A stretch of 64,000 nt of DNA from the IMG/VR virus record IMGVR_UViG_3300034407_003469; one strand, 5' to 3'. Within the stretch, counting starts at the first letter, position 1. Every line of letters begins with the position of its first letter. The notes under the pieces were generated by a model. That model was not told where the DNA came from. It saw only the letters and a list, made by a program, of their open reading frames with translations, and did no database searches. The stretch comes from an uncultured virus (IMG/VR IMGVR_UViG_3300034407_003469). Its lineage: Duplodnaviria > Heunggongvirae > Uroviricota > Caudoviricetes. Shown here one piece after another: positions 16,071 to 63,911 of this stretch. Made by a program: the position numbers and the translations under genes.

Positions 16071-16074
16071 ATTT

Positions 16075-16485: not shown

Positions 16486-16490
16486 TTTTT

Positions 16491-16879: not shown

Positions 16880-16882
16880 CTT

Positions 16883-16981: not shown

Positions 16982-16986
16982 AGTAA

Positions 16987-21478: not shown

Positions 21479-21945
21479 TATTTTTCAGGACTATATGTTG
21501 CTTCAGGTAATTCAGGTCTTGGAGGAGCCTGTGCAGGAGCAGGTGCAGGAGCAGGTTCAGGCATTGCTTGAGGAGTAGGTGTGTAATCTACTTCACCACC
21601 TGCATCATAATCACCATCTTCCTTTTCAAAAAATAGTTTATATCCCACATAAATAATGCCTAATAAGACTAACGCATCAAAAATTTGCCTCTTATTTCTT
21701 TGAAAGAAGCCTTTATTTTTTGCATTTTTCTTTTTTCTGTACTCTTTTATACTACTTTTTTGCATATCTTCTTGCCAATCTGATTTACCATCATCGTTGA
21801 TTTCCATCTTACCATCAACTATTTCATTTTCTTCATCAGATGATACAGAAGATTTTGTGAGTTTTTTTTCTACATTACCCCACATTTTTCTTTCTTCTCT
21901 ATCATCAACAAAGCCATCAAACGCAAATCCTGAATCTATACCCAT
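21478..21945 (-). CDS. Membrane protein with Pro/Ala-rich tail
   Basis: Central TM, YDAGG, PAPAPA. Confidence 0.6.
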   Translation of the reverse strand: MGIDSGFAFDGFVDDREERKMWGNVEKKLTKSSVSSDEENEIVDGKMEINDDGKSDWQEDMQKSSIKEYRKKKNAKNKGFFQRNKRQIFDALVLLGIIYVGYKLFFEKEDGDYDAGGEVDYTPTPQAMPEPAPAPAPAQAPPRPELPEATYSPEK

Positions 21946-33618: not shown

Positions 33619-34452
33619 TTAATTATTACTTGCTCTCAAATTAGGTGAACTATATTGAGTGCTAAATTTATTTCTTTCAAAATTTGTTATAAACTGATTT
33701 AAAACTTCAAATCTTTCTTTATTTTGAGCAGTAGGAGTATCTTTAAAAGTTGTTAAAAAACTCTGATATGCCTCAATTCTTGGATAACCAAGTGCTAAAT
33801 AAATTAATAATCCGTTTAAATCTGCTTCTGTTTCATCTTCCATATTTTCATTTAAGTAAAAATGAGCAAACTCGTGCAATAAAATTGCCATTCTCATTGG
33901 TACTGTAAATTTTTTAAAGTGAGCCTTACTCACTTGTATAATTCCTTTTGACTGACTAATTCTTGCAGGGGTCTGTATTACCATTCCTCTTTTATTTCTT
34001 ATATCATCAAAGTAATCTATTCTAAAATTTCCCTCATCAGATATATAGGTGCTTCCGTTTGGAAACTTTCCTGCACTTAATATACCTGCATTATCAGAGA
34101 ATTGTTGAGCAAAATTGCAAAAATCTCTAATTTTAGGATTACTCCAATCTACACAGTCCATTTTTCTTTCTAAAGGTCTTGCATCTATCTTAACAACTTT
34201 AAAAGTTGGGTCTTGACCTTTTTGTAAATTTCCGTTTGCCTTATTATATACTGATATTAATGCTTCATACGGTGAAATTGGCATCCTAACAAAAAATCTT
34301 TGTTTACCATCAACCGTTGAGTGCCTATTAGTGTAATCAGTATTAGGCTTATTTATGTCTTTAACAATCACTTGAATTTTTTGAGGTGCATTTGTTACAA
34401 CCTCAATCATTATTGTAAGTGGTTTCTGTTTTGTTTTAAATAATATATTCAT
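33619..34452 (-). CDS. Zincin-type metallopeptidase (candidate maturation protease)
   Basis: ILLHEFAHFYL followed by ETEAD. Confidence 0.65.
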   Translation of the reverse strand: MNILFKTKQKPLTIMIEVVTNAPQKIQVIVKDINKPNTDYTNRHSTVDGKQRFFVRMPISPYEALISVYNKANGNLQKGQDPTFKVVKIDARPLERKMDCVDWSNPKIRDFCNFAQQFSDNAGILSAGKFPNGSTYISDEGNFRIDYFDDIRNKRGMVIQTPARISQSKGIIQVSKAHFKKFTVPMRMAILLHEFAHFYLNENMEDETEADLNGLLIYLALGYPRIEAYQSFLTTFKDTPTAQNKERFEVLNQFITNFERNKFSTQYSSPNLRASNN

Positions 34453-39758: not shown

Positions 39759-40571
39759 TTAAAAATATTGTGTTCTTATTCTTTCTCTTACTTGTTGTAT
39801 AGCCGTTGCTCTATCAATAGTTGCACCATCAGATAAACTTTTTTTGTTTATTGCAGGTTTTACAACTGAATTAAAATTTTTAGAAAGATACTCATCAATT
39901 CCATTATTGATAATTGATTCTGTCATTTTACCTTTTATCTTTTCTTCATCCAAATCTACATACATAAAATATCTTGGATTGTCATTGAAATATTGAGTAT
40001 TAACGATATTTTCTGCTATACTAAATAACTCGTATTTATCAGGAAATTTATTTCTATGCCTTTCAATACTATCAGAATTTTTATGAAATCTTAACCAATT
40101 TGCATTTTGCCAAACCTTTGTGGTTATTCTTCCTATACTTTGGAAATGAATAATAATATCTAAATCTGTATGTCGGTTGGAACATATTGCACCCACAATG
40201 TCGGTAGGTAAATGGTCACCAACATATTTATTTATATCTTCAATTAATAACATACCTCCCCTAAAAAAATGTAATATGTCCCATAACTGATTTGCAATTT
40301 CTTTTAATGTTAATCTAATTCCTGTTTCTTCGTTAAAAGGTCTTACTCTTCTTATTTCTGCGTGAGGCATTACTGAAAATTTAACTAAATCTTTCATTGA
40401 AATAGCCTTATAATCTACAAACTCATCATTAACATCTAATATTAAAACTCTTCTTGGCTCAACACCTTTTTCGGGATTACCATATACATATGACTCAATA
40501 AGGATTTTGGTTTGATATGTTTTACCAATTCCTTTTTTTCCAACTGCCATACCTAATTTTGGTTCTCTCAT
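39759..40571 (-). CDS. FtsK/HerA-superfamily (A32/P9-like) genome packaging ATPase
   Basis: Walker A GKKGIGKT, Walker B LLIED, NRH Arg motif, IIIHFQ sensor, downstream QNANW. Confidence 0.75.
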   Translation of the reverse strand: MREPKLGMAVGKKGIGKTYQTKILIESYVYGNPEKGVEPRRVLILDVNDEFVDYKAISMKDLVKFSVMPHAEIRRVRPFNEETGIRLTLKEIANQLWDILHFFRGGMLLIEDINKYVGDHLPTDIVGAICSNRHTDLDIIIHFQSIGRITTKVWQNANWLRFHKNSDSIERHRNKFPDKYELFSIAENIVNTQYFNDNPRYFMYVDLDEEKIKGKMTESIINNGIDEYLSKNFNSVVKPAINKKSLSDGATIDRATAIQQVRERIRTQYF

Positions 40572-45162: not shown

Positions 45163-46074
45163 TTATTTAGGTCCAAACGGCATAGGATTTTCAGGAGCCT
45201 TCGGCATACCTCCAAAAATTTCATCTTCTCTTACTACTTTAGGTGGTTGTTGAAAAGCAGGATTATTAGGATTCATTCCCCCCTGTTGATTCTGACTATT
45301 CATATAATTTTTTATAGGGCTTTGGCTTGAACTTACCCCTTCTGCAATTTTGTTTGCAGTAAAATACTTTGCCTTAAAGTTTTCATCTTTTACTATACCT
45401 GCTGATAATTGTTTACCAAATATTTCATCAGAAGGAAAATGTACTCCCATAATTAGTCTTGATTTAGAACATTTGTCAGCAAATTGCATTAACATATCTT
45501 CTTTATCAGGATAACGAAAACTTAAAATTTCGGCAAAAACAAAAGCCTGTACCGTGTGTCCTGATGGATAAGATGGGGATTGTGCCGATACAGTTGGCAT
45601 AGGATTTAAAGAATAAGATAAAATGTTTGCTAATTGATATGGTCTTATTCTATTATAGAAATATTTTAATTTCATAATAATAGGATTAATGTCATCATAC
45701 ATTCCTTGAACAAATTCTTGTGGATTAGCTACCCCACATTTATTTGCCATCTCAATTAACATACCTGATAAATCCTCATCAAACTTAACACTTAATTCTA
45801 CAACTTTGTCGTGTTTTAGCTTTTTCATTTCATCTCTAATTAATGCTAATTCTTTTAATGCATACTGTCCATCATTATTAGGATAAGGTTTTTGCATATA
45901 ATGATTTGCTATATAATCATATGCTCCCTCTTCTCTAATAAGAATATCTTGATAGGCATTAGGATTACCATAAGTTAATTCATTTATGGGAACCAAGCCG
46001 AATTTTGTTTTAGGTGAAATAGGATTTATTGCCATAGGTTGTTTTTGTGGTTTTCTTTTTCTTGTTCTTGCCAT
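45163..46074 (-). CDS. PAP2-family phosphatase
   Basis: K..YNR.RP, SYPSGH, SR..MGVHFPSD. Confidence 0.85.
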   Translation of the reverse strand: MARTRKRKPQKQPMAINPISPKTKFGLVPINELTYGNPNAYQDILIREEGAYDYIANHYMQKPYPNNDGQYALKELALIRDEMKKLKHDKVVELSVKFDEDLSGMLIEMANKCGVANPQEFVQGMYDDINPIIMKLKYFYNRIRPYQLANILSYSLNPMPTVSAQSPSYPSGHTVQAFVFAEILSFRYPDKEDMLMQFADKCSKSRLIMGVHFPSDEIFGKQLSAGIVKDENFKAKYFTANKIAEGVSSSQSPIKNYMNSQNQQGGMNPNNPAFQQPPKVVREDEIFGGMPKAPENPMPFGPK

Positions 46075-47163: not shown

Positions 47164-48858
47164 TTATGGTTTTATAAGTATATTATCTATTGCTTTTTGT
47201 ATAGCTTCATATCTTATAAGGTTTATAGTTTTGTCAGCATTATTTATGCTATTATCAAGGATATTTTTACTTATTTTTAATTGATTGTATAAATAGTCTA
47301 ATTTAAAATCTATCGTTTTACCCCCTTTTTCAAAATAACTTTCAGTTAAACCTTTTTCAGCCATAGCTTTATCTAAAATATTTTTCATTTTAGTAAAAGA
47401 AATTGGCTTTTCATCGCTATCATCATATATTTCAAAATAAAAAGTTGAACCATAATCATCTTCTAATCTTTCAACATCACTTTCTGTTAATATAAATTTA
47501 CCAAGTCCTTTATCTTTTAACTGTTTCCACTCAACTTGAACTAAATATACTTCTTCTATATCACCACCTCTCCCAAAATCTACTTTTTTACCAAACAATC
47601 TTTCCATTTCTTTATCAAAGTCTTTTCTTTCTTCCTTATTAAATGCTTCATCTGATACTTCAGACCAATCTTCTTTTGTATTAATAGGTCTAAACAATAA
47701 TTGACCATCTTCTTTTTTATATTCTGAACCATATTTTTCAGATTTTTTTACTTCCCCACCTTTTGCAAATGGCAAAATATATTCTTCTCCTCCAATTTCT
47801 TCCAATTTATCTTCTAATTTTCTTTCTTCTTCTTTTAATGGTTTTGTCTTTTTTCTAAATTCTTCTACTCCTTTTTCTGTATATAAATCTGCTTTTAATT
47901 TTATATCTGTTAGTTTATTTCTTACTTTATTTAACTTTCTTACTATATCATCTAATTCACCACCTTTTTCAAAACCTCTCATTTTTTCGTAATAAGCAAC
48001 TTGAACTTCTTTTGGTGCATAATTAATATTATCAATCAACATAAACTCATTATCTCCTTCCCTTGCTCCGTACAAATGACCACCAAATATTGCAAAATCT
48101 TCTCCATCAAAAGTGAAAAAAGTTCTTAAATTGTATTCAGTATTTCTTAATTTCCCACCTTTTGCATAATTTACTTTTTCTTTAGCCATCATTTGTTGAA
48201 TCATTTTTAGTTTTTCTTTATCATCTTGTGTCAACCTATCGTATTGACTTCTCATATATTCTCTTTCTTGTGCTCTATCAAATTCTTTATCTTTATTTCT
48301 TCTTGAATCCATAATTCCACCTTTTTCCATAGATAATTCTTTTTTATCAACCTTTGATGCTTTACCCCCCATTACTGCACTATAAACTCTTGCTTGAGCC
48401 CATTGCTCTTTTGACTTAACATTTGGTCTTACACTTGATGGATTAGTTTTATAAGCACCTATGCCTTTATTATATATTTGTTGTATTCCTTTTTTAGATA
48501 CCCCTGTATCTTCTGCAATGTCTGATAAAGAATTTGATGCATCTAATTCGTTACCATATTTTTTATTATATTTTTCTTTCCAAGTTTTTGCTTTTTTGGT
48601 CTTGCCACCTTTTTTATATTTAAATCCCTTTTCATATTCAGAATTTTCTAATTCTTCATCTAAAATTTCAGGATTATCACAATGAAAATTAATATGGTCA
48701 GCATATTCATCTAATGTTACCTTACCATCATCATCTAAATCAAAATGGTCGTGTAATTCATCTTTGGTAATATTATCAGGATTTTTAGGGAACTCATCTT
48801 CTTTTTTAATATTGTAATCCCTGATAGCTAATATTTTTCTTAATTTTTCTTTTTTCAT
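47164..48858 (-). CDS. Modular xxGG-linked protein with EF-hand and DUF5824-like module
   Basis: DLDDDGKVTLDE; IYNKGIGAY.T...RP....QWAQARVYS; seven xxxGG linkers. Confidence 0.65.
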   Translation of the reverse strand: MKKEKLRKILAIRDYNIKKEDEFPKNPDNITKDELHDHFDLDDDGKVTLDEYADHINFHCDNPEILDEELENSEYEKGFKYKKGGKTKKAKTWKEKYNKKYGNELDASNSLSDIAEDTGVSKKGIQQIYNKGIGAYKTNPSSVRPNVKSKEQWAQARVYSAVMGGKASKVDKKELSMEKGGIMDSRRNKDKEFDRAQEREYMRSQYDRLTQDDKEKLKMIQQMMAKEKVNYAKGGKLRNTEYNLRTFFTFDGEDFAIFGGHLYGAREGDNEFMLIDNINYAPKEVQVAYYEKMRGFEKGGELDDIVRKLNKVRNKLTDIKLKADLYTEKGVEEFRKKTKPLKEEERKLEDKLEEIGGEEYILPFAKGGEVKKSEKYGSEYKKEDGQLLFRPINTKEDWSEVSDEAFNKEERKDFDKEMERLFGKKVDFGRGGDIEEVYLVQVEWKQLKDKGLGKFILTESDVERLEDDYGSTFYFEIYDDSDEKPISFTKMKNILDKAMAEKGLTESYFEKGGKTIDFKLDYLYNQLKISKNILDNSINNADKTINLIRYEAIQKAIDNILIKP

Positions 48859-51572
48859 TATTTATTTTTTAGCTTGTCTAATTCTTTTTGTAATTCAATT
48901 TTAATATCTTCATCTTTTTCATCAGCAATAAGCCTTTCCATAACTTCAATATCCTCATCTTTTTCAGACATTATTCTACCTCCTTCCTTATATTCTTCTT
49001 TTCTCATTTCAATTTTTTCTTTAATTACGATAGGAGCATCATCAAATTTCATCTTTTTACCCCAATGACTAATATCAGATGGATATTCGCTTCTATCTCC
49101 CTCGTACATATTAATACTTAAATTAGGTAGTGTTTGTGTGTTCATACCATAAACATCACCTTTCATTACAATTGTATAGTTATCATCAGGTCCTTCGTAT
49201 ATTTCTACTTCATTCATATCTAACACACCCCCTTCTTCAAGTAACTCTGCTCCACTATTATCAGTTGTAATAATAACATTTCCAACCTCTTTTCCTGATG
49301 TTTCTCTTATTTTACTTTTTAGTTCTTCTAACTCTTCAGGTGTTAAATCAAATTTATTTACATTTCTATTTGAAACATCTAAAGCAAATGCCCAACTATT
49401 ATTTCCTGTTTTGCTTAAAATACCCTTACCTGTTGTTGCATCTATTTCGCCCCACTTCTTATCACTTTGTATTCTAATGATATTAGTTTTTCCTGTTATT
49501 GGATATACTATAAAGTCTTGAGGCTTTCTCATACCTTTAACTTTTAAGTCAAATGAAAGAGTTCCCATAAAGTTTTTATGATAGTTTGTTATAGGTGATG
49601 CAGTTTCTCCCCCTTTTGCATATTCTTCATAAAATAAGCCTTCTTTTTCTACATAAGTTTTTATTGGTGTGTCTTTATATATATCTCTGCCTGATGAGGT
49701 TTTCTCTCCTGTTTTTTCTTTAATCGTTAATTTAACAGGCGACCCTTGTAGTTGTGTTCTTGCCATATAATATTTACTGCCCGGATATTTTTCATAAATA
49801 TCATTCCAAAGCAATCCACCTTTTGCCATACTTGGGGGCTTTACTTTAGTTAGTCTTTTTATTTCTAAAGCATCCCCAATACCATCAACATATACTCTAT
49901 CGTTGTGCATATGATGTTTTGAATTTACTTTTCCTATATGCTTCATTCCATATCCTGCATCTACCGAAACATAATCGCCAACTTTAATTTCACCTCCTTT
50001 TCCAAATAGTCCTTTATGATTAACATACAATATGTATTTATCTCCCTCTTTTACAATTTTTGTTTTATCTCCTTGAAAATCTCTAACAGACATTATGGTT
50101 GCTTTTTCTTTGGACTCATATTCGCCTTGTTTAGTATAAGAAACACCATCAATGACTTTATCTAATTTATAATATTTGTTATATGTTTTTACTTTACCAC
50201 CTTCTGCTAAAACGGGCAAAACACTTGTGTCTTTTATTTCATACTCATAAGGTAAACGGGTTTTTTGAAAATCATTCATCATAATACCTTTTGGGTTTCC
50301 TAAAACAACATCCCCTTTAATATCTACCACCTCTATTTCAGTTCCCTTATCCCCCATATATCCATAATTACTTAATAAATAACGAGTTTGATATTTTTCA
50401 GTTTCACCACCTTTTGCAAATCTTAACCCTTGTTTATCTAAAACCTTTTTTTCATATCTATCTAAAATTTCTTGTCTTACATCATAAGTATATTCATCAA
50501 ACTCATCATAACCTCTATCTTGTAAAATAGCATTAATACTGTCCATTACATTTACCATATCATTTGGAAATGCTTCGTTTTCTTCCTTAACTTGATTTAC
50601 AACTTCAATAAATTCTCTTTTTGTTTCAACCTCCCCTCCTTTTGCATTGATTTTTACAACATCAACAATATCAATACTACTATCTTCATATTTAGAATTT
50701 CTTTCTCTAATTAGTTCTTCGGCTTTATCCATCGCTTCATCTTCCGAATTAGCAAATACATTTGTTCCCAAATCAATTTCATCATCTATTAAAACTTCAA
50801 CCTTATATTCGTTTTGTGTTTTACCGCCTTTTGCATATTTTTTATCTGTTAAGTTTTTTCCTATTTGAGATATTGCTTTATCTATTGGGTCTGTAACTTT
50901 TTTTACTGATTTAGGGTTTTTAGCACCATAATATGCACCAATACCTGCTGATGCTAAATAACCACCTAACGCAAAGTTAGTATCTTCAAAGTCATCTGAT
51001 ACGGCAAATATAGTAACCTTACCTCTTTCGTTATCAAAATAATCTATGTCCTCTAAATTATGTCTATGCTTCTCTTTAATATCTTTTACAATATCTTTAG
51101 CAATATTCATCGCTTTTTCAGAACCTAATCTTCTTTGCTCACCTGACATTGTTTCTTTACCATATGCTACTTGCACTCCTGATGGTGTTGGATAATCAAT
51201 GTATATATTTAAAAAGTTAGGTGATATTTTATCTTTCACATATCTTGGAACAAAATATTTTTTGGTTATTCCACCATCTGCAAAAAATAAATCTTTTGGT
51301 ATTTCGGGAACTTTAATATCTTTAGGTTTCCCCATTTCTGTTTCAGCAACCAAAATAGTTTCATCCATTTGTGGTTCTGATGAAGGTTCAGGTACAGATA
51401 TTGGCTCATCTGAAACGACTTTTGTCAAATAGTCAATTTTTTCTTGATTATCATCATATTCCTTTTTCATATCCTCATCATCAATTTCATCTTTTAGAAA
51501 TTCTTGCATTTCGTTTAAGTTGTTTAACTCTTCCTTTAACTCTTGATTTGATTTTCCTTTAAATTCTTCCAT
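48858..51572 (-). CDS. Large modular xxGG-linked (polyvalent/polyprotein-like) protein
   Basis: Eleven linkers (FADGG, FALGG, YAKGG, NAKGG, FAKGG, LAEGG, FGKGG, MAKGG, YAKGG, LEEGG, YKEGG) separate unrelated modules. Confidence 0.7.
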   Translation of the reverse strand: MEEFKGKSNQELKEELNNLNEMQEFLKDEIDDEDMKKEYDDNQEKIDYLTKVVSDEPISVPEPSSEPQMDETILVAETEMGKPKDIKVPEIPKDLFFADGGITKKYFVPRYVKDKISPNFLNIYIDYPTPSGVQVAYGKETMSGEQRRLGSEKAMNIAKDIVKDIKEKHRHNLEDIDYFDNERGKVTIFAVSDDFEDTNFALGGYLASAGIGAYYGAKNPKSVKKVTDPIDKAISQIGKNLTDKKYAKGGKTQNEYKVEVLIDDEIDLGTNVFANSEDEAMDKAEELIRERNSKYEDSSIDIVDVVKINAKGGEVETKREFIEVVNQVKEENEAFPNDMVNVMDSINAILQDRGYDEFDEYTYDVRQEILDRYEKKVLDKQGLRFAKGGETEKYQTRYLLSNYGYMGDKGTEIEVVDIKGDVVLGNPKGIMMNDFQKTRLPYEYEIKDTSVLPVLAEGGKVKTYNKYYKLDKVIDGVSYTKQGEYESKEKATIMSVRDFQGDKTKIVKEGDKYILYVNHKGLFGKGGEIKVGDYVSVDAGYGMKHIGKVNSKHHMHNDRVYVDGIGDALEIKRLTKVKPPSMAKGGLLWNDIYEKYPGSKYYMARTQLQGSPVKLTIKEKTGEKTSSGRDIYKDTPIKTYVEKEGLFYEEYAKGGETASPITNYHKNFMGTLSFDLKVKGMRKPQDFIVYPITGKTNIIRIQSDKKWGEIDATTGKGILSKTGNNSWAFALDVSNRNVNKFDLTPEELEELKSKIRETSGKEVGNVIITTDNSGAELLEEGGVLDMNEVEIYEGPDDNYTIVMKGDVYGMNTQTLPNLSINMYEGDRSEYPSDISHWGKKMKFDDAPIVIKEKIEMRKEEYKEGGRIMSEKDEDIEVMERLIADEKDEDIKIELQKELDKLKNK

Positions 51573-53740: not shown

Positions 53741-56700
53741 TTATTTTACTCTTATTTTTAATAGTGCCATTGAATTATTGAATTTACCAATTAATTCCTC
53801 AAGAGTTTCACCTCTTTGTTCTGCTTTTAATAATTGGCTTTCTTCCTCTTTTATTCTATTTTCTATTTTCCATTTTTTCTCACTATTCAATTCTTTTTGC
53901 CCCTCAATTACTTTGTTATTAGCTTTAGTGATTAAAATATCAATATCATTAAAATTATAACCCTCTTGAGTAACATCATTTTTAATTTGATTTTCAATTA
54001 AGTAAAAATAATTAGACATTATTCTTTCGTTTTCTGTACCTGTTAAAAATAAATTTACTTGTGTAGATATTGAATCATAACTGAATCTGATATTTTCATC
54101 TGAAAGATTATCCGTTATCACCTTTACTATCTGTTCTCCTATTATGGAATCTTTATTAACCATTCTCATACGGCTATTTCTTTCTGTTGGAGATACATCT
54201 AAAATATTTTCAAGAGTTCCACGATTATTTTTAATTAATTTTCTTACAGCATCACCTACTACATTAACATCAACCATTTGAGAGTCAGCAGTTAAAATTA
54301 AATCAGGATTTGTAAACTCTATCATTCCATCCTTTTCTTGTTGTTCTACTACTTTCATAGCTTCTTCAATGCTTACAAATACAGGCTTATTATTTTCTTT
54401 CCATTGTCTACCCCTACCTCTACTATCTTTTTTGAAATTATATAATATGTCTACATCTAATTTGTCTTTTTCAACAAGAGCAATTTTCCTCTTTTCTTCA
54501 AATTTAACTAATTGATAGAGTTTATTCATAAGAGTTACATAACCATCAAATAACATTTTAACCTCTCCATATTTGTCCTTTATAGTTTGCAACTTACTTT
54601 TTTCATCAGAATATTTTGCGACTTTACTATTTAATTCATCAACTTTATCTTGCCAAGCTAAATCGGTTAATTGGTCTATGTCAGTAATAATATTTCTTAT
54701 TCTTTCTTTCGCATCAATTGTATATTGAGTTTTGTTTAATTCATAAACCCCTGCTTCAAGCATTTTTTTAATCTCACCTATTTTGGTTTGCAGTTTAGAA
54801 TATACAAATGCATCAATACTATCAATACCAAGAACATATACTATTCTAACAAATTCCCACATATTATTTTGTCGCCAAATTCTACCTTCTAATTGCATTG
54901 CGTTAGATGGAGAAAAATCACTATCTAATACATATAAAGTATGGGCTCTTCTATTTAAATCTATTCCTTCTTTTATTGCTGATGAGCCAAGTAAAATCTT
55001 TATTCTTCCATCATTAAATTTATCTCTAATGTCCTCCCTTTTTCCTATTGTTTTATCTTTTCCTGTTGTACTATCTATAAGTATAGAACCATTTTCATCC
55101 GTAGCTTTGACTGTTCCACTCATACCACCTGTAATAATACCAATGTTTTCTTTAGTTAAAGTTACTAATTTGTCTTTGATATTGTCATAATATGTTATCT
55201 TTTGGTCTACTATGTAAGTTTTAATTAACTCATATAGATTGTAATAATGACCACCATATTTCATACTTTTTCCTTTATTAATATACATTATTTGACCCCC
55301 CACTTGTCTATCATTTACTCCTCCTTCCTTGGAATCATATTTAATAGTATTAAGTGCACATTCTATTGCATATTTAATTTTAGGACTATTTTCTACAAAA
55401 TTCTTTGCTGATTTTGATATGTCATTAGGGTCTAACGGGAAATTTTTTAACAAATCATTTGGTACATCACCTGATTTATCACATTTAAGTAAATAAGGAG
55501 ATATAACACACATTTGCCCAAATCCTTGACCCACAATAGCACGAGCCATTCTTACTTCACTTTTACTATTTGCAGATAAATCCATATCTTCATAGTTACT
55601 ATCATACAACTCTTCATTTTCCTGCATATCCTTTATAGTTTCAGGGTCAAATAAAGCACTATCTACTAAACTTTGTTTTTTAGCTATTCTTTTATCTTCA
55701 GGATAAGTTGTTCTTAAATCTACTAATAAGCTACGGGCTGACCTTAAATATTCTTCCCATTCGTTACTTCCCTCTTCTTCTTTTTTAGCTTTTTTAAGTA
55801 AATCCTCTACCTCTTTAATGTAATCCTTAACTTCATCATTCAAAAATTCCACCTCTCCTGTTTCTTTATCTACTTGAATTGCATCACCATAATTTGGACA
55901 ATATTGAAATGGTATATCTATTTTACCCTCTACATATTGTGCTATCTTACTTATTATTTCTTTTTGCACAGGACTTAATGGAACATAACTTGATACATCT
56001 TGTAATTGAGGTGCCCATTGTACTGATGATGTATTTGCTCCTGCTTGATTATTTCCTCCTGTACCATCTTGTGGGATATAATACTTTAATGGTCTTTTTG
56101 CTTCTATTATTTTATCTGAAACTTTAAAATTTGCCATTGACTTAATAAAATTTGACATAGCTGAAGAGTTATAATAGCTTTGTATTTCAGGAAATAATCC
56201 AAAAGTTTGTCTATGGGTGATATTATATCTCCACTCTTCTTTAACAAAAGTTACAAAAAAGTCCCATACAGACATTATATTGCTTTCTTTCATTTTATCC
56301 AAATTAGTCATACCAAAAACAGAAAACATTTGAAATATATTATCAGTAAATGGTGTTGCTGACATTAATATAGTATTATTTACTCCTTTGTTTTCTTCTT
56401 TTGCCTGTATTTCAAATATTAGAGATATTAAATTAGCAGGTGCAGTAGTTAAACTTCCTTTACCTGATGAATAATATTTCAATCGGTACTCACTTTCTTG
56501 TATTCCCGTTTTAGTTGGTATGTTATAATTATTTGGATTATGATAAAGAGTTCCCTCCTCAACATATATACCCTTTTTTGAATTTACACTATCCCCATCA
56601 GGCAATACATTTAAGGTAGCATTAGCCCTCATTGTAGGTAATAATGTAAAATCTAAATTAGTTCTTCTTCCTCTTGTTAAATCTACTCTTGACAAAGTAT

Positions 56701-59700
56701 GTTCTCTTGGTTTACTAATCAAATTATTAAAATTATGAATTTCATCAACCGTTATGCCATCTATATTAAGTTTCTTTAACGATAAAGGTAAATTAGATAA
56801 TTTATCATAAAATCTATTTGTAGATGGATTTACATATCTAACATCTTCAACATTTTGCACATACTTACGGGCTTTTAAATTTGCTTTGTCATCGGCTCTA
56901 AATCTTTTAATAGCTTGGTGACTACACAATATTATTTTATTAGGCTCCATTACTTCTTTTCTATATTGACCTAAAACATCAATCAACATACCTTCAATTT
57001 GTTTTAATAAAACTGTAACAGTACCCGTATTTTTATTATCTATTGGATTAAAAAAGTTTTTTGATAATAAGTTTTCAGTTTTTTTAATATCATTGATACC
57101 CTTTTGAGTCAATACTCCTTCCCAAGGTTGAGTGCTTTGTTTAATTCTATCTGCCTGTTCTTTAGTTACTACCCCATCTTTTAAAGCCTCATCTAAATTA
57201 GTAATCCAACCCTTTTGAGGATAATCTCCACTAAATAATTTATCTAAATCATTTTTATTGGTTTTATAAAATTCTTGAACAGATTTTGGATATTCAGATA
57301 TTTTAACTTTATTTTCTCCAACAAAATCCTGTTTCTGATATCTATAACCTGATTGGTATCTATCGTATTGAGAGTTTACCTTATCATATATAACTTGTGC
57401 TGATTTATTTACCTTTTCTACTATATTATCAATAGCTTCTTGTGTATCTTCATTGCCTTCATCATATATTTCAGGTATTTTCAAACCTATATTTAATGAT
57501 AAATTATCAAACCAATCGTTAAAATCTGAATCTCTTAATGAATTAGAAAATCTGCTTTCATTAGGCAAACCTCTTTTATCTTCAGGTAAAAAAGATGGTC
57601 GCCCTGCGGGTAAGTTTTTCAATTGGTCTTTAGCCATTTCTAAAACTCCTTTGTCTGCTTCATTTCTTGTATCTTTTCCTTTTGGTTTTGATTTACCTTT
57701 CCATTTTGCTATAATTAATAATTGAGAAGGTGTGTATTTTTTTAAACCTTTTACCCCTCCCTCTTTATCACTACCTATTAATATATTAGCTGATGCATTA
57801 CCAAATTTGATTATATCAACTGCATCTGTTATATTATTTCTTTTATTTCTTTCTAAAGTTTGCCAATTTGATAATAATCCTAAAGTTCCTGTTGTATCTC
57901 TTCCAATTATTTCATCTGCAAATTTTTCATATACTTGATTAGGTGTGAATACAATAGTTCGTGAACTTTCACCTGTTAACATCATATGGGACATCATAGC
58001 GATAGATGTCGTTGTTTTACCAAAACCTACTTCGTGTGCTAAAAGACCTGAATTTTTGTTTGCTATGGCAAATTTCATTCCCTCAACTTGTGCATCTCTT
58101 AAATTAAATAGGAATGGATTAGGCAAAGACCCAAACCATCTTGAATGTTCACAAAATATTGGGAATTTAGTATAATCAGCAATAGCCATATTGTTATATG
58201 TTTTATTCCAAACTTCTTCAATATTTGCTCTATAATATGGTGTAAGTTGAATTTTACAAAAAGTAGTAAATAAATTATTACCCTCTAAAATTATTTGACT
58301 TTCTAATTTTTTATATTTATCAGTAATTACATTGAATATTCTTTTGCCCTCGGCTTCTGTAATTGGAGTAAATAATTGTTTTGCCTTTATAGTATTTTTT
58401 GGGTTTTTTGGGTCAGGCATATTTACCTCAACTGCTACTTTTTTCTTATTTTCAACTAAACCTATTTTTATTAAGTTTTCTCTACTTTGTTGTGTTAAAT
58501 TACTAAATCCATATGGAGATTTAGGATTATATACATTTGTTAGTGTAAAGGTTTTTTGATTATTTCTTTTTAAGTAAGGAATAAACTGAAGAGGACAAGG
58601 TATATTATCACCTTCATCAGCAATCTTTTCAAATTTTGGCATTATGTGTTTCTTAATAAATGCTCCTGATGACATAGGGAATATATACCCATCAACTAAA
58701 TAAAACTCATTTTGTTTTAAATATGGGCTACTAATAAAATCCACTCCTTGACCAAATACCACAAACTCATAGAATTTTTTCAAATGATTATTAGTTAAGT
58801 TTAAAGGATTGTTTAATTTGAAATCATCATACTGTTGCTTTTTTGACATACCACCTAATGCAATAGGCTTGTATAAACTTTCTGCCTCTACTTCAATAGT
58901 TGAAATACGGGTCTTACCATCTCTAAATACACTATAATCCTTACCTATTCTGCCTACAAATCCCTCATCATTAGTAAAAAATATAGGATTATGTATATTA
59001 ACAATTAAGTTTTTTTCAGGATTTTTATCTCCAAATGTTAATCTATCAGGCTTATTATTATTTAATAAAGCATTTTGATTATCAACAATTTCTAATCCTT
59101 TTGACTCACCATAGTATAGTATTATATTATCTTCAAGTTCTCTATTTAAATAATTTAATTTTTTGTAAACATCTCCTGATGCATATTCATAGCTATAAGT
59201 GTATTTCTGCTCAACTATCTGTCCTGAATCTTTTTCAAAACTTAATCTTTCTATACATATAAGACCTTTCTCTATAAGTATCGGCAACAGTTTATCAGAA
59301 AAAATAAAATAATCAACTCCTAAAATTCTTTGGCTTAATTTTCTAAAATAAGAAGAGTTGTCTTTTGAACTACCTCCTTTTGTAACAAAATATGCTAAAA
59401 CTTCTTCAATATTCATATTTTGATTATTCATCCAAAAAGTTTCTCTTATATCATATATATAAAAGTAATCAGGGTTAGACCATCTACCTTTGCCAACTTT
59501 ATCTTTAAAATAAGTGCCTTCAGATGAATCTAAAGACCATTTAGGGTTCTTTTTAGTTTTCCATTGCAATTGCCCGTTTACACTTACTTGGTCGGCATAT
59601 GTAAATATAAAAGATGCTATATTATCTATTAGTAACTTATAAAACAATGGGCTTTCTTTTATATCTACTAATTTAGATTGTCTTATTAATGCATCTTGCA

Positions 59701-61129
59701 ATGCTTCTGACTCTTCTATAATATCATCTGATAAAACTATTTCTCTTACATTTTGCTCATCAAATAATTTACTCTTTTGTTGTAAAGATAATGATGGCTT
59801 ATATAATTCTGCATATACAATATGTTCGCAATTAGATAATCTTCCTGAACTTACTCCTTTAGCATATCCATATTGCTCTTTATTAGAATTTACAAAGTAT
59901 GCTTCATCTGATTTAGGGTTAAAATATATGTCAATGGTATCAGAATCCAAATCCATATATGTAGCACAAGTCAAAGCAAAATATAAATCATTAGACCTTA
60001 TATTTATAAAAACTTCGTTTATTTTGTCAAAAAACAATTTAATTGATATAGCTTTACTTCCTTTAGAACTTTGTTTTAATGCAGGATTTTCAGAAAAATT
60101 TGTATCGTAAAAATTCCTTGATAAAATATTAAAAGGTTCTACATTTTTTAATATGTCTTTACCTCTAATACCTGAAACTCTCACATAATCATTATTAGTG
60201 TCTAAATTTTTTACAAATTCTGCTTTATCAGATATTTTTTGTAAGTCGCCTTGACTACATTTAGACAAATCTGATACAGGTTTAAATTCATATTTTGTTG
60301 CATTACTATTAATATAATTCAAACTATACCCACCGTTAAAATAAGAGTTATCTACACTTGTTGATATAGAAAGGGGAGAGCAGATGTAATCTTCAGGTAG
60401 TAGTACAGATGTTCTATCATTAATTATATATCCTTCAGCTTTATTAAATTTATAGTTAATCTTTACACTATTTAAATCTTTATTTGCAACGGCATCAAAA
60501 AACTTGGATGTTCTTTCAATTGGTAGTTGTTCTAAATTTAAATTTTGAGGACATAATTTATACATCAAAAGTCCCATAATATCTACATCTAATGCTGAAG
60601 AATCATTTAAAAATCTGTAATCAGGATTTGAAAAAGAACTTACAACTCCATTTGGCAAGGATGAAAAGTTAATGTTGGTATATATTTTGTCAAACATATA
60701 AACACTTTGACTTTGAAAAGCAACATTCATAACCTGAAAATTAATTAAGTTAGTTAATGCATCAACTAATTTAGCATAAAAAGAATAAGGCTTTCTATAT
60801 AATCTTTCAATAAACTTTTTAACATCTGTGTCCAACTTTCCTTTCGGTGTTAATATTCTATCTCTAAAATATTCTAATTTATCTTTTCCTTGAGAATCGG
60901 CTTTTCTTTTTAATTCTTTCCAATAAATACTATTTACCCCAAATGTTCCATTTATTCTACCATCTCTTCCTTTTAAATATGGACTTTCATTCCCATATAT
61001 AAAGTCAGGATTTTTTGCAACATACTTGGCAATTATGAACATACCTTCATCTTTTAACAATGAATTATCATCAATTGTAGTATTTAATTTGCTTATTTGC
61101 TCTCCTATGTAATCTAATATATTTGCCAT
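53741..61129 (-). CDS. Giant SNF2/SF2 helicase, DarB-like
   Basis: AHEVGFGKT, VDEIHNFNNL, SATPFTDN, FNDGRIKILLGS..IKEGIDL, QLEGRIWRQ. Confidence 0.8.
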   Translation of the reverse strand: MANILDYIGEQISKLNTTIDDNSLLKDEGMFIIAKYVAKNPDFIYGNESPYLKGRDGRINGTFGVNSIYWKELKRKADSQGKDKLEYFRDRILTPKGKLDTDVKKFIERLYRKPYSFYAKLVDALTNLINFQVMNVAFQSQSVYMFDKIYTNINFSSLPNGVVSSFSNPDYRFLNDSSALDVDIMGLLMYKLCPQNLNLEQLPIERTSKFFDAVANKDLNSVKINYKFNKAEGYIINDRTSVLLPEDYICSPLSISTSVDNSYFNGGYSLNYINSNATKYEFKPVSDLSKCSQGDLQKISDKAEFVKNLDTNNDYVRVSGIRGKDILKNVEPFNILSRNFYDTNFSENPALKQSSKGSKAISIKLFFDKINEVFINIRSNDLYFALTCATYMDLDSDTIDIYFNPKSDEAYFVNSNKEQYGYAKGVSSGRLSNCEHIVYAELYKPSLSLQQKSKLFDEQNVREIVLSDDIIEESEALQDALIRQSKLVDIKESPLFYKLLIDNIASFIFTYADQVSVNGQLQWKTKKNPKWSLDSSEGTYFKDKVGKGRWSNPDYFYIYDIRETFWMNNQNMNIEEVLAYFVTKGGSSKDNSSYFRKLSQRILGVDYFIFSDKLLPILIEKGLICIERLSFEKDSGQIVEQKYTYSYEYASGDVYKKLNYLNRELEDNIILYYGESKGLEIVDNQNALLNNNKPDRLTFGDKNPEKNLIVNIHNPIFFTNDEGFVGRIGKDYSVFRDGKTRISTIEVEAESLYKPIALGGMSKKQQYDDFKLNNPLNLTNNHLKKFYEFVVFGQGVDFISSPYLKQNEFYLVDGYIFPMSSGAFIKKHIMPKFEKIADEGDNIPCPLQFIPYLKRNNQKTFTLTNVYNPKSPYGFSNLTQQSRENLIKIGLVENKKKVAVEVNMPDPKNPKNTIKAKQLFTPITEAEGKRIFNVITDKYKKLESQIILEGNNLFTTFCKIQLTPYYRANIEEVWNKTYNNMAIADYTKFPIFCEHSRWFGSLPNPFLFNLRDAQVEGMKFAIANKNSGLLAHEVGFGKTTTSIAMMSHMMLTGESSRTIVFTPNQVYEKFADEIIGRDTTGTLGLLSNWQTLERNKRNNITDAVDIIKFGNASANILIGSDKEGGVKGLKKYTPSQLLIIAKWKGKSKPKGKDTRNEADKGVLEMAKDQLKNLPAGRPSFLPEDKRGLPNESRFSNSLRDSDFNDWFDNLSLNIGLKIPEIYDEGNEDTQEAIDNIVEKVNKSAQVIYDKVNSQYDRYQSGYRYQKQDFVGENKVKISEYPKSVQEFYKTNKNDLDKLFSGDYPQKGWITNLDEALKDGVVTKEQADRIKQSTQPWEGVLTQKGINDIKKTENLLSKNFFNPIDNKNTGTVTVLLKQIEGMLIDVLGQYRKEVMEPNKIILCSHQAIKRFRADDKANLKARKYVQNVEDVRYVNPSTNRFYDKLSNLPLSLKKLNIDGITVDEIHNFNNLISKPREHTLSRVDLTRGRRTNLDFTLLPTMRANATLNVLPDGDSVNSKKGIYVEEGTLYHNPNNYNIPTKTGIQESEYRLKYYSSGKGSLTTAPANLISLIFEIQAKEENKGVNNTILMSATPFTDNIFQMFSVFGMTNLDKMKESNIMSVWDFFVTFVKEEWRYNITHRQTFGLFPEIQSYYNSSAMSNFIKSMANFKVSDKIIEAKRPLKYYIPQDGTGGNNQAGANTSSVQWAPQLQDVSSYVPLSPVQKEIISKIAQYVEGKIDIPFQYCPNYGDAIQVDKETGEVEFLNDEVKDYIKEVEDLLKKAKKEEEGSNEWEEYLRSARSLLVDLRTTYPEDKRIAKKQSLVDSALFDPETIKDMQENEELYDSNYEDMDLSANSKSEVRMARAIVGQGFGQMCVISPYLLKCDKSGDVPNDLLKNFPLDPNDISKSAKNFVENSPKIKYAIECALNTIKYDSKEGGVNDRQVGGQIMYINKGKSMKYGGHYYNLYELIKTYIVDQKITYYDNIKDKLVTLTKENIGIITGGMSGTVKATDENGSILIDSTTGKDKTIGKREDIRDKFNDGRIKILLGSSAIKEGIDLNRRAHTLYVLDSDFSPSNAMQLEGRIWRQNNMWEFVRIVYVLGIDSIDAFVYSKLQTKIGEIKKMLEAGVYELNKTQYTIDAKERIRNIITDIDQLTDLAWQDKVDELNSKVAKYSDEKSKLQTIKDKYGEVKMLFDGYVTLMNKLYQLVKFEEKRKIALVEKDKLDVDILYNFKKDSRGRGRQWKENNKPVFVSIEEAMKVVEQQEKDGMIEFTNPDLILTADSQMVDVNVVGDAVRKLIKNNRGTLENILDVSPTERNSRMRMVNKDSIIGEQIVKVITDNLSDENIRFSYDSISTQVNLFLTGTENERIMSNYFYLIENQIKNDVTQEGYNFNDIDILITKANNKVIEGQKELNSEKKWKIENRIKEEESQLLKAEQRGETLEELIGKFNNSMALLKIRVK

Positions 61130-62652: not shown

Positions 62653-63696
62653 TTAGTTTTTAACCATATCAATATACACCTCTTTTATTTTTTCATCATC
62701 CCTAATCCAACCTGCATATTTTTCAAGTGTTTCTCTTTGACCTTTTGATGTTACCCAAATTTGATTAGTAGGACCGTATTTTTTATAGTCTTTAAACTCA
62801 CTTTGTCCAATTAACATATCACTAATAAATATAACACACATTTCATAATCAGGATTTTCATTTTGCTTTGTTCTTTCTATATCTCCAAGTTTTCTAAATG
62901 CACCATCAAAACTTGTACCTCCTCCTCCGTGATAAATTAATCTGTCTGTTACATCTTTTAACGGTATTTGCTCGTTTGGAACACCAAATTTAGGGTCTTT
63001 ATCATATGCACTCATTCCACAACTATCACAAACCCAAAACTGCCCTGAATATTTTTTAGCTAATTCAGGAATAAACTGTGACAATAATTCTAAAAATGAA
63101 ACTCCCCCATCAGTATAACTACCCATACTTCCTGATTGGTCCATTAAAACAACGACTTCTTTATCATTTTTTATTACTCTACTTTTTGCTTTTCTAAATA
63201 CGGCAACCCCTTGCTCTATATATGTTTGTGCCCCTTCGTAATCTAAATGCTTTCTTCCCATTTTAGGAGCACCTATCAAATCGCCTAACCCTGCTTCTAT
63301 TTCTGAAAACCATTCAGGCTCCCCACCTTGTGTTTCAGGAAGAGCAATAAAACCTAAATCAGTACCTTTTTCTCCTGCACTCGTACTTTCAGCAGGAACA
63401 ATACTATCAGCTTCAGGAAAATCAATTTTGTTATTCATTAACTCTTCTTTTATTTGAGTTACTTCAAATTCAGCTTCTCTAATATCAGTTAAATCTTCAG
63501 GAGATAATTTTTCATTTTGTTTAAATGCATTTTTTTCCATTGAACCACAAGATGTAGGCATATCATAAGTCAATGGACTTACAATTTTGTTTTGTTGAGT
63601 TATTTCTTCTTTTAATCTACCAACAAGACCTTCAAGATTTTCATTTAAATCTTTAATAATATTACTATATATTTTTGCCTTTTGTTTATACTCCAT
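62653..63696 (-). CDS. vWA domain protein
   Basis: VLMDQSGSM (MIDAS), GGGGTSF, IFISD. Confidence 0.75.
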   Translation of the reverse strand: MEYKQKAKIYSNIIKDLNENLEGLVGRLKEEITQQNKIVSPLTYDMPTSCGSMEKNAFKQNEKLSPEDLTDIREAEFEVTQIKEELMNNKIDFPEADSIVPAESTSAGEKGTDLGFIALPETQGGEPEWFSEIEAGLGDLIGAPKMGRKHLDYEGAQTYIEQGVAVFRKAKSRVIKNDKEVVVLMDQSGSMGSYTDGGVSFLELLSQFIPELAKKYSGQFWVCDSCGMSAYDKDPKFGVPNEQIPLKDVTDRLIYHGGGGTSFDGAFRKLGDIERTKQNENPDYEMCVIFISDMLIGQSEFKDYKKYGPTNQIWVTSKGQRETLEKYAGWIRDDEKIKEVYIDMVKN

Positions 63697-63911
63697 TACC
63701 ATTTATTTTGTGGACATTGTTGCCCATCTAAAAGTGTTTTTGCTTTTAAAATACAACCACAAGTCAATTGATTTCCATTAACATCATATTCAGGTCTTAA
63801 AAGTGTTCCACAGGTCATTCCAACTCCGTATGTTTGTTTTACATAAGGACATCTGCCACATATATTAAGTCTGTCTTGTGCATTTAATCTTCTTGGTGTA
63901 TTGCTCCACAT
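63696..63911 (-). CDS. Small Cys-rich phage protein
   Basis: RL.IC..CP...C....CGC....K......CP..KW. Confidence 0.6.
   Translation of the reverse strand: MWSNTPRRLNAQDRLNICGRCPYVKQTYGVGMTCGTLLRPEYDVNGNQLTCGCILKAKTLLDGQQCPQNKW

Follow-up and report, generated by a model that had tools for sequence, protein, structure and literature searches.

A conserved seven-residue Gly-Gly motif at the junctions of exchangeable cassettes in two viral polyvalent proteins

What purpose is served by a short peptide motif that recurs between unrelated segments of one viral protein? The question is raised by an uncultured virus (IMG/VR record IMGVR_UViG_3300034407_003469), of which a stretch of 64,000 nucleotides (the window) was analyzed. 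Two abutting open reading frames (ORFs), both on the minus strand, encode proteins of 904 and 564 amino acids (aa) that are punctuated by the motif hydrophobic-x-x-GG, and a first-pass annotation made from the letters and the ORF translations had proposed that they are polyproteins cut at these sites. The analysis described here established the motif as a real, peptide-level element that lies between modules and at which cassettes are exchanged, and it may also be a site at which the chains are processed. Polyvalent proteins, the class to which both ORFs belong, are thought to be a main route by which phages and plasmids deliver counter-defense enzymes, and at issue is how such chains are built up, rearranged and activated. 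The two ORFs and their motif copies are listed below, in the order of each protein.

48858 to 51572 (−), 904-aa cassette (polyvalent) protein, 12 modules with 11 GG motifs between them
51270 to 51284 (−), motif copy FADGG, residue 97 of the 904-aa protein
50961 to 50975 (−), motif-like FALGG, residue 200 of the 904-aa protein, followed by the glycine-rich hydrophobic stretch YLASAGIGAYYGA
50823 to 50837 (−), motif copy YAKGG, residue 246 of the 904-aa protein
50634 to 50648 (−), motif copy (I)NAKGG, residues 310 to 314 of the 904-aa protein, hydrophobic residue displaced one place outward
50406 to 50420 (−), motif copy FAKGG, residue 385 of the 904-aa protein
50196 to 50210 (−), motif copy LAEGG, residue 455 of the 904-aa protein
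49992 to 50006 (−), motif copy FGKGG, residue 523 of the 904-aa protein
49815 to 49829 (−), motif copy MAKGG, residue 582 of the 904-aa protein
49608 to 49622 (−), motif copy YAKGG, residue 651 of the 904-aa protein, opening the conserved C-terminal block
49227 to 49241 (−), motif copy LEEGG, residue 778 of the 904-aa protein
48978 to 48992 (−), motif copy YKEGG, residue 861 of the 904-aa protein
47164 to 48858 (−), 564-aa cassette (polyvalent) protein, 8 modules with 7 GG motifs between them
48703 to 48741 (−), EF-hand-like loop DLDDDGKVTLDEY in the conserved N-terminal module of the 564-aa protein
48604 to 48618 (−), motif copy YKKGG, residue 81 of the 564-aa protein
48316 to 48603 (−), DUF5824 module, residues 86 to 181 of the 564-aa protein, between YKKGG and MEKGG
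48316 to 48330 (−), motif copy MEKGG, residue 177 of the 564-aa protein
48154 to 48168 (−), motif copy YAKGG, residue 231 of the 564-aa protein
47959 to 47973 (−), motif copy FEKGG, residue 296 of the 564-aa protein
47755 to 47769 (−), motif copy FAKGG, residue 364 of the 564-aa protein
47563 to 47577 (−), motif copy FGRGG, residue 428 of the 564-aa protein
47320 to 47334 (−), motif copy FEKGG, residue 509 of the 564-aa protein

The pattern [FYMLIVW]xxGG occurred 10 times in the 904-aa protein and, together with INAKGG, accounted for every one of its 11 GG dipeptides; the 564-aa protein carried seven copies (YKKGG, MEKGG, YAKGG, FEKGG, FAKGG, FGRGG and FEKGG) among 10 GG dipeptides. A seven-residue pattern, [FYMLW]xxGGx[IVLTM], was found 10 and 7 times, respectively, against means of 0.29 and 0.14 in 5,000 residue shuffles per ORF, and in neither case was the observed count reached in any of the 5,000. 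The recount and the shuffles confirmed the 11 and 7 copies given in the first-pass annotation. Since YLASAGIGAYYGA comes directly after FALGG (residue 200), this copy may be part of a membrane-type segment and not a linker.

Homologues of the 904-aa protein numbered 186 at an E value of ≤0.001 among 7,995 candidates scored, most covering 7 to 30% of the query and often 70 to 99% identical to it; a single-protein scan of IMG/VR with this protein gave no match. For the 564-aa protein, 674 cluster representatives were identified at an E value of ≤0.001 and 121 at 1e−30. At least four motif copies were present in 184 of 268 homologous proteins, with a median motif spacing of 79 residues. BLAST blocks shared by the window proteins and their homologues start and stop at motifs: 159 of the 263 internal ends of high-scoring segment pairs (60%) lay within 6 residues of a GG in the 904-aa protein, compared with 16% for random positions, and the figures for the 564-aa protein were 174 of 298 (58%) and 17%.

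Orthologues of the 904-aa protein keep modules 1 to 3 (residues 1 to 250) and 10 to 12 (residues 651 to 904) as bookends, each with 14 to 55 hits (modules 2 and 10 were the most widely found, with 55 each), and the middle modules, with 7 to 17 hits each, are replaced among orthologues. One homologue (P0005) matches residues 1 to 325 and carries residues 523 to 586 at its own positions 390 to 453 and residues 649 to 904 at 996 to 1251; the module of residues 523 to 586 lies at 775 to 838 in another (P0011). In the 564-aa protein, the N-terminal (EF-hand-like) and the C-terminal helical modules are conserved, and close orthologues have whole cassettes of ∼90 residues inserted exactly between two motifs (...GFKYAKGG, the insert, then ...YAKGG KTKKAKTW...). 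Cassettes also cross gene families, as P0005 and P0010 combine ends of the 904-aa family with modules of the 564-aa protein. The dominant process is cassette gain, loss and replacement, not permutation. The module shuffling that had been anticipated among relatives was therefore seen as gain, loss and replacement at the motifs but hardly as true inversion of order, which was rare (1 of 17 and 1 of 10 subjects with at least two blocks). The EF-hand-like loop DLDDDGKVTLDEY, which we take to fit the EF-hand calcium-binding loop consensus, was kept in the 564-aa orthologues (DLNNDGKVNIEEY and similar).

The modules between motifs behave as independent folds. AlphaFold2, run on the 564-aa protein with a 36-row alignment, predicted separate folded units joined by coil, with a mean predicted local distance difference test score (pLDDT) of 66 and a predicted template modeling score (pTM) of 0.32. 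Seven segments had a pLDDT of <50 (residues 71 to 87, 180 to 188, 227 to 244, 295 to 299, 359 to 367, 425 to 486 and 506 to 518), and each of them holds or abuts one of the seven motifs, which lie in coil; the modules in between were modeled as helical or beta/alpha units, DUF5824 with a pLDDT of ∼90. The earlier description of beads on a string thus holds for all seven motifs of this protein. An all-versus-all BLAST of the 20 modules (20-sequence database, composition correction off) gave no pair better than an E value of ∼5e−4, and at this level the modules are, as had been claimed, unrelated.

DUF5824 (residues 75 to 170 of the 564-aa protein) was the only Pfam match in the two proteins. 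Among Pfam domain instances in homologues, 35 of 37 were free of the motif inside and bracketed by motifs, the two exceptions being YRDGGIE in a PAPS reductase and LKKGGLG in a methylase. Where the motif directly flanked DUF5824 as its nearest neighbor, it lay 4 to 7 residues outside the domain in 5 of 6 instances on each side, and for ART-PolyVal the next motif lay 9 to 15 residues past the domain end in 17 of 19 instances. Modules had also been expected to occur as stand-alone homologues, and DUF5824 was found alone with the same boundaries, as an ORF of 89 to 104 aa without hydrophobic-x-x-GG, in 31 of the 34 IMG/VR loci examined. The stand-alone form starts with M-x-x-TYK, 2 to 3 residues after the GG of the upstream motif in polyvalent versions, and ends in ...HLIRK, where the downstream motif begins in those versions. 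A motif that forms a structured hairpin or lies within a fold was rejected, given its place in low-confidence coil and outside the Pfam bounds.

Pfam domains were then scanned in the 37 longest motif-rich representative hits of the 564-aa protein. DUF5824 was present in 36 of the 37 and ART-PolyVal in 23; others were Zeta_toxin/AAA_33, ArdA, DarA_C, LPD3, LPD29, topoisomerase IB, GNAT, N6_Mtase/Eco57I, PAPS reductase and a DNA polymerase III beta-like domain, and no peptidase domain was identified in any of the 37. In the main text of Iyer, Burroughs, Anand, de Souza and Aravind (2017, PMC5512222), polyvalent proteins are described as a class thought to be delivered with invading DNA, with ART-PolyVal, LPDs, ArdA, parts of DarA and DarB, nucleases and kinases as signature domains. 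About 36% of them are given there as carrying a zincin-like MPTase domain within the chain, and such zincin-like metallopeptidases were proposed to process polyvalent proteins. We regard the 904-aa and 564-aa ORFs as established members of this class. Each chain holds several unrelated globular domains, as seen from the separate folds, the dissimilarity of the modules and their independent recurrence. The window pair itself has only DUF5824 by Pfam, and the domains typical of the class were seen in homologues that share cassettes with it. Both genes lie in a viral genome, with virus-type genes in the window (Mom, RecT, RusA, amidases and a DarB-like gene), and IMG/VR relatives of it are rated complete. 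An in-chain zincin-like MPTase, a frequent and not an obligatory feature of the class, was not found (0 of 37 homologues; PF18818 was absent from five relatives). The DarB-like gene belongs to the same gene array and comes directly upstream.

53741 to 61129 (−), DarB-like helicase/methyltransferase of 2462 aa, upstream of the cassette genes, PHROG annotation "DarB-like antirestriction", not motif-rich

A sequence logo was generated from 1,600 non-identical sites in the 268 homologous proteins, using a search pattern in which the GG was fixed and position 0 was hydrophobic only. The consensus across these homologues was [YFM]-[AEK]-K-G-G-x-[IVTL]. Position 0 was Y in 38%, F in 27% and M in 21% of sites (86% together), position +1 was A in 42%, E in 18% and K in 14%, and position +2 was K in 47%; position +5 was E or K, and position +6 was I, V, T or L in 83% (1.3 bits). 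Flanking positions beyond the motif each held ≤0.2 bit. Because the flanks are without information, the unit of the motif is seven residues, aromatic/Met-x-(K)-G-G-x-aliphatic. Genomes with far more divergent core genes showed a less constant Lys and kept the GG and both hydrophobic anchors.

The codons of the motif glycines vary within the window (GGT, GGA, GGC and GGG). Across 230 motifs in 28 genes from the window and its IMG/VR relatives, synonymous codons at all motif positions were used at close to their frequencies for the same residue elsewhere in the same genes. The sole clear skew was at the first motif Gly (GGT, 67% versus 47% elsewhere; GGA, 17% versus 36% elsewhere), which is consistent with avoidance of the Shine-Dalgarno-like AAA-GGA-GG (AAAGGAGG). 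As codons vary freely and no homogenization of the sequence was seen, selection acts on the peptide and not on the DNA. The suggestion that the GG-coding linkers act as a DNA-level signal for recombination was not supported and was rejected, since codon usage in the motif is near background. Given this synonymous freedom, breakpoints at the motif may reflect the survival of recombinants that stay in frame and spare the folds, and such survival explains the clustering of breakpoints at least as well as targeted recombination does.

The motif also occurs where no module follows it. Three IMG/VR relatives are syntenic with the window: G001 (68.8 kb, with inverted terminal repeats and rated 100% complete), G003 (101 kb) and G005 (70.5 kb). 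In G003, G005 and G001, the first polyvalent protein ends in ...DIRFKKGGYVRI, ...DIRFNKGGYVRI and ...DSRLEVGGLIF, respectively, in each case at a true stop codon of an ORF from a complete genome, and C-terminal ends seen in complete genomes, each directly before the stop, were ...RFKKGGYVRI, ...RLEVGGLIF, ...LLKGGMV, ...LAKGGKI and ...FEKGGKI. Overall, a stop within 5 residues of the last GG was found in 17 of the 184 motif-rich proteins. A separate family of 286 to 327 aa, with one member in each of the three genomes, ends exactly at motif position +6.

58148 to 59131 of G001 (−), member of the 286- to 327-aa family with C-terminal motif LLKGGMV
5297 to 6157 of G005 (+), member of the same family with C-terminal motif LAKGGKI
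90929 to 91861 of G003 (−), member of the same family with C-terminal motif FEKGGKI

The G001 member adjoins DUF2272/CHAP-like and peptidoglycan-binding genes. In addition, tandem motif copies 5 to 20 residues apart, with no module between them, made up 153 of 1,474 spacings. Because several proteins stop right at the motif, it has the look of a self-contained unit that is recognized; a passive hinge needs no downstream hydrophobic residue where no domain follows, which points to a reader, either a protease or a binding partner. The seven-residue GG motif is probably a newly described recognition or cutting signal. No mention of YAKGG or FAKGG was found in the literature searched, in which matches to AKGG and "KGG motif" were unrelated, and no paper on DUF5824 was found there. 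The words linker, glycine, marine, boundaries and low-complexity do not occur in the main text of PMC5512222, whose supplementary alignments might include such junctions. New here, on this evidence, are the junction motif, the miniature-cassette architecture and a free-standing zincin-like protein (see below); the polyvalent class itself is known.

If the motif is read by a protease, the virus might encode it, and an Ulp1-, adenain- or C39-type enzyme had been suggested. Profiles were searched against five viral records per family, three of them rated complete or nearly so. Peptidase_C48 (Ulp1, PF02902) and C5 (adenain, PF00770) gave no match in these relatives at an E value of ≤10, with a divergent copy among unannotated ORFs being possible, and neither did C39 (PF03412) at the same threshold; the suggestion therefore found no support. 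The motifs are internal and repeated and are not N-terminal leaders of the kind that C39 enzymes cut. Peptidase_S78 and MPTase-PolyVal (PF18818) were likewise not found in the relatives. No peptidase family was identified in the complete genome G001 (Pfam, 61 ORFs; PHROGs, 97 ORFs), and scans of the window (Pfam, 59 ORFs; PHROGs) identified none except cell-wall amidases and CHAP/DUF2272.

The core that is conserved between the window and G001, G003 and G005 comprises a 270-aa P-loop ATPase (54 to 57% identity), proteins of 361, 241, 277 and 146 aa, PAP2, RecT and a nuclease. Within it, the 277-aa protein is a candidate for the processing enzyme.

33619 to 34452 (−), 277-aa core protein, candidate processing protease, with an N-terminal beta-sandwich and a zincin-like metallopeptidase domain
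33862 to 33876 (−), HEFAH (HExxH) of the 277-aa protein, invariant in 34 aligned sequences

The protein carries HEF[AS]H and, ten residues later, E207, E209 and D211, an arrangement first seen to be invariant in 4 sequences; H193, E194, H197, E207, E209 and D211 were then invariant in all 34 aligned sequences of the family, which has 1,902 members at an E value of ≤0.001, all unannotated. No other ORF carries HExxH in the window (91 ORFs scanned) or in any of G001, G003 and G005. Its model (pLDDT, 88; pTM, 0.87) has a beta-sandwich (residues 1 to 93), a helix (106 to 121), a small sheet (strands within 134 to 175), a helix bearing HExxH (184 to 199) and a helix bearing the acidic residues (207 to 220). 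This layout agrees with the zincin core described in the main text of PMC5512222, namely, an N-terminal helix, a small sheet and two C-terminal helices.

In a structure search independent of Foldseek and ranked by Z score, the best match to the catalytic half was E. coli BepA of family M48 (Z, 8.9; root mean square deviation, 4.0; 119 residues; model range, 125 to 261). The only other matches to this half were 3c37, a putative Zn peptidase from Geobacter (Z, 7.0), Ste24p (Z, 6.5) and ZMPSTE24 (Z, 6.2), all of M48 type. Foldseek against PDB returned nothing below an E value of 0.001 (best, 1.9e−3), mostly with alignments to the N-terminal beta-sandwich, plus a handful of full-length but weak alignments to M60-like metallopeptidases, and nothing relevant came from searching PDB sequences with a profile. 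The 277-aa protein is therefore best described as a candidate zincin-like metallopeptidase, with a predicted activity and no assigned family, because the Z scores are moderate, Foldseek gave no E value below 0.001 and Pfam gave no M48 match. The gene was present in 9 of 10 searched IMG/VR records with motif-rich proteins, the miss being a 57%-complete fragment, and also in G005. Hidden Markov models of the zincin and the ATPase gave no hits within 10 kb on either side of 80 DUF5824 loci; both genes lie 13 to 20 kb from the polyvalent genes. A complex prediction of the zincin plus Zn with residues 352 to 386 of the 564-aa protein scored 0.00, without controls, and is evidence for neither side.

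We favor, tentatively and at somewhat less than an even chance, the reading that the motif is a processing site, most likely cut by the zincin-like 277-aa protein (33619 to 34452); that cleavage takes place at GG, and that this enzyme makes the cut, is plausible. The virion would carry the cassette chains and deliver them along with its DNA, as happens with the phage P1 Dar proteins. The conserved first and last modules would probably serve incorporation, with the cassettes between them free to be gained, lost or replaced. A protease encoded by the virus would recognize the connector and cut there, so that the string falls apart into its modules, and the conserved free-standing metallopeptidase would be the best candidate for that protease. 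Because every cassette has the same connector, an in-frame exchange at the connector would yield a working chain that can still be processed, and the arsenal could be reshuffled quickly. Processing at the motif also fits the long-standing proposal that zincins process polyvalent proteins, and it would explain why enzymes with unrelated targets are held in one chain.

Several points weigh against processing by the zincin. Packaging of the cassette proteins in virions, although probable, is drawn from family resemblance only. A C-terminal motif, with 2 to 4 residues after the GG, makes little sense for module release and fits a binding tag at least as well. The low pLDDT at the motifs may partly stem from a patchy alignment that breaks at cassette borders. 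As for the enzyme, a Z score of 8.9 is just above the level typical for models without a clear match, and the scores as a whole are moderate. The 277-aa protein does not match Pfam Peptidase_M48 (PF01435) or MPTase-PolyVal at an E value of ≤10 in five relatives, and its only Pfam hits are weak ones to SprT-like (2 of 4 members; E value, 0.013) and M56 (1 of 4 members; E value, 0.048). The zincin belongs to the core genes of the lineage, so that common descent confounds its occurrence alongside motif-rich proteins, which is not independent evidence, and the motif consensus showed no clear change between genomes with close and with divergent zincins. We know of no M48-type enzyme that prefers Gly-Gly. 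Lastly, the other large ORFs of complete relatives had no motif beyond hydrophobic hits of the LLIGG type at chance level; as the motif is confined to cassette proteins, it is not a general maturation site that extends to capsid proteins.

Possible, and less probable than processing, is that the motif is never cut and instead serves as a short linear address or handling tag, bound repeatedly by one partner, which could be a packaging or scaffold component, a chaperone, an internal membrane or portal element, or a translocation channel. Strings, and single proteins with a C-terminal tag, would by this means be loaded into the particle or moved out of it. Binding motifs typically look like this seven-residue unit, which lies in disordered linkers and has a pair of hydrophobic anchors but flanks without information, and a bare C-terminal copy ending at +6 on the unrelated 286- to 327-aa family of three complete genomes, and after C-terminal ART-PolyVal cassettes, is what a tag would look like. 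Selection on the peptide, the failure to find a classical GG-specific protease and the conserved first and last modules, which show that chains are handled as units, speak for it as well. However, one copy per ∼80 residues (median spacing, 79) far exceeds what an address needs, the nearby VWA-like and AAA genes show no sequence conservation when the window is set against its relatives, and a tag leaves unexplained why enzymatic domains with very different targets stay in a single chain.

It is rather unlikely that the motif is a minimal hinge without any reader, in which hydrophobic residues cap the preceding and following domains, the GG gives flexibility, and the whole persists because recombinants joined at hinges fold and cassettes carry their hinges along. 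The clustering of homology-block ends at the motif and the insertion of whole cassettes between two copies are as a hinge would have them, the first motif residues overlap the natural end of the DUF5824 fold, and the virus-encoded RecT and PD-(D/E)XK nuclease could drive exchange at short homologies. Generic linkers, however, do not converge on one seven-residue consensus among hundreds of unrelated modules, nor would the consensus be expected to hold, as it does, across genomes with a widely diverged zincin gene (E values, 1e−50 to 1e−143). The codons are not homogenized, contrary to what gene conversion predicts; C termini with no domain after them retain all of the motif, its +6 hydrophobic residue included; and tandem copies 5 to 20 residues apart are common (the 153 of 1,474 spacings given above). 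Cleavage by an adenain/Ulp1-like or C39-like cysteine protease, as the first-pass annotation had it, or by a host protease we consider very unlikely. The analogues for such cleavage are adenovirus core proteins, the polyproteins of African swine fever virus (ASFV) and double-glycine leaders. The hydrophobic-then-GG pattern does resemble the consensus sites of adenain and of ASFV, and there are relatives with inverted terminal repeats and no recognizable tailed-phage head genes, but the C48, C5 and C39 searches of the relatives and the peptidase scans of G001 and the window described above were negative, and the register differs, with the hydrophobic residue five places before the bond that follows GG as opposed to four in adenain. 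The chance that the answer lies outside all of these readings appears minimal.

Returning to processing by the zincin, its fullest form would be that of plug-and-play polyproteins: packed libraries of miniature effector cassettes, dozens in number and each ending in Phi-x-K-G-G-x-Phi, cut at every junction by a dedicated virion zincin, which would trim the C-terminal tags too. This form is doubtful. If true, all delivered products would have the same C-terminal end, prokaryotes would have an equivalent of the Gly-Gly maturation of adenovirus and ASFV, one that arose with a protease of another class, and the system would be a natural standardized-connector system for rapid rearrangement of counter-defense functions. 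The motif, found in hundreds of ocean protein clusters, has uses of its own. It offers a simple rule for delimiting effector modules, and splitting proteins at it gives a catalogue of candidate anti-defense domains; it may be a processing or addressing signal for which a candidate enzyme can be named; and it would serve as an example of natural standardized connectors for in-frame cassette exchange.

The arrangement can be compared with known systems. It shares with the polyvalent proteins of PMC5512222, as presented in the main text, the many unrelated domains per viral chain, the signature domains in cassette-sharing homologues and the DarB-like giant neighbor. The domains here differ in being mostly very small (median spacing, 79) with one conserved seven-residue motif per junction, and no peptidase lies in the chain (0 of 37) or matches MPTase-PolyVal, the only zincin being a separate gene. 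In phage T4, the internal proteins and Alt are cut by gp21 after L/I-x-E, and gp175 cuts the inner-body proteins of phiKZ-like phages after S/A/G-x-E. In these phages capsid and scaffold proteins are matured at that site as well, by a protease of the herpesvirus-assemblin/HK97 class. Common to these phages and the proteins described here are a short repeated consensus, sometimes present several times per chain, and, if processing holds, its use on proteins delivered along with DNA. By contrast, the motif of the window is confined to cassette proteins, and neither a protease of this class nor an HK97-type head gene turned up.

Adenovirus adenain and ASFV pS273R cut after Gly-Gly, adenain with the consensus (M/I/L)-x-G-G. 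A hydrophobic residue followed by Gly-Gly, used repeatedly on virion proteins or polyproteins, is the point of likeness, whereas here no clan CE protease was found, the cargo consists of shuffled effector cassettes and not of structural core proteins, and the logo places the hydrophobic residue three places before the first G, compared with two in adenain. The Dar system of phage P1 (DarB, DarA and DdrB; main text of PMC5512222) has parallels in the DarB-like giant at 53741 to 61129 and in DarA_C in one cassette-sharing homologue. The role, protecting incoming DNA, is presumed to be alike, whereas in P1 each protein has a gene of its own and no junction motif is shared, and no P1-type head genes were found here. 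The 277-aa protein resembles the minimal gluzincins of M48 and M56 (BepA, HtpX, Ste24 and BlaR1) in its HExxH helix and in the invariant acidic residues on the next helix. It differs from them in having no sequence membership, no membrane segments and an added N-terminal beta-sandwich, and the spacing from HExxH to Glu in M48 enzymes is much longer than in this protein.

Two other ORFs of the window carry the motif repeatedly.

13103 to 14080 (−), 325-aa protein with 4 motif copies, FAKGG, YAEGG, YAKGG and YAKGG
20528 to 21379 (−), 283-aa protein with 3 motif copies plus KKARGG and a C-terminal hydrophobic tail

The fourfold recurrence in the first of these, which had been noted from the sequence, is above chance, as the observed count of the strict motif form was reached in none of 5,000 shuffles. 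For the second, the count of the seven-residue pattern was reached in 1 of 5,000 shuffles, so that recurrence above chance stands, and the four copies noted earlier become three plus KKARGG. Single copies reported in 21478 to 21945 (YDAGG) and 16491 to 16661 (MKAGG) were at chance level in shuffles. Between two motifs of the 325-aa protein (residues ∼105 to 128) lies a 24-aa mini-cassette, LAKGYHKMPDGTIMKDSDHY, which recurs nearly unchanged between motifs in the 564-aa homologues P0122 and P0130. The 283-aa protein contains two copies of a ∼55-aa repeat, each with a motif ahead of it, and has one module in common with the 1387-aa polyvalent protein of G001. Hydrophobic C-terminal tails (...VMLLSAIAGIFFGAFLSK and ...MLIGGLAGILLGIFLNK) were seen on some motif-bearing proteins (the 283-aa protein, P0053, P0059 and P0138), as if they were tail-anchored in a membrane.

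The window has ∼29% G+C, and its genes include Mom, RecT, a PD-(D/E)XK nuclease, RusA, cell-wall amidases and DUF2272/CHAP. A Mom-like DNA modification protein is encoded at 3723 to 4391 (−), an Fe/Mn superoxide dismutase at 14972 to 15643 (−) and a PAP2-family phosphatase, a gene conserved in relatives, at 45163 to 46074 (−). In G001, a MoxR/CobS-like AAA_5 ATPase (15870 to 17273) and two large unannotated ORFs lie between its two polyvalent genes, and G003 and G005 have ORFs of comparable size at this location, a likeness of size and position. A weak VWA_2-like ORF lies upstream of the DarB-like gene of the window (62653 to 63702, −). The neighboring VWA-like and AAA genes showed no sequence conservation between the window and G001.

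The virus group itself is abundant, uncultured and marine, with more than 1,900 homologues of one core gene, and is worth describing in its own right. Its complete genomes measure 69 to 101 kb, and inverted terminal repeats were found in two of the five records first searched (G001 and G004). No terminase, portal, HK97-type capsid, tail or prohead-protease match was identified in G001 using Pfam and PHROGs. The gene best conserved among relatives is that of the P-loop ATPase.

39759 to 40571 (−), 270-aa P-loop ATPase

Its ESM Atlas neighbors carry Zot/DUF87, and a profile search of PDB gave similarity at the P-loop level only; the 241-aa core protein had nothing above 0.81 in ESM Atlas. The group has many small hydrophobic ORFs. 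It is possible that the particle is that of a membrane-containing virus and not of a tailed phage. Cultured phage genomes contained no match for the 904-aa gene (searched as DNA and protein) or for the ATPase or zincin core genes. The right end of the window had no exact match in IMG/VR.

Roseobacter phage CRP-701 (PV211009.1; L097, 4518 to 7142) has an 874-aa ORF, annotated "major capsid protein," right after its portal gene, and the N-terminal part of this ORF contains a DUF5824-like stretch, a weak contextual hint of packaging. The same DUF5824-like core also matches hypothetical proteins in 183 Salinibacter phage records. At the start of the window, positions 1 to 1029 (+) are the 3′ end of an ORF of 2404 aa (L002, 2548 to 9762) that consists largely of collagen-like G-x-x triplets and presumably encodes a fiber.

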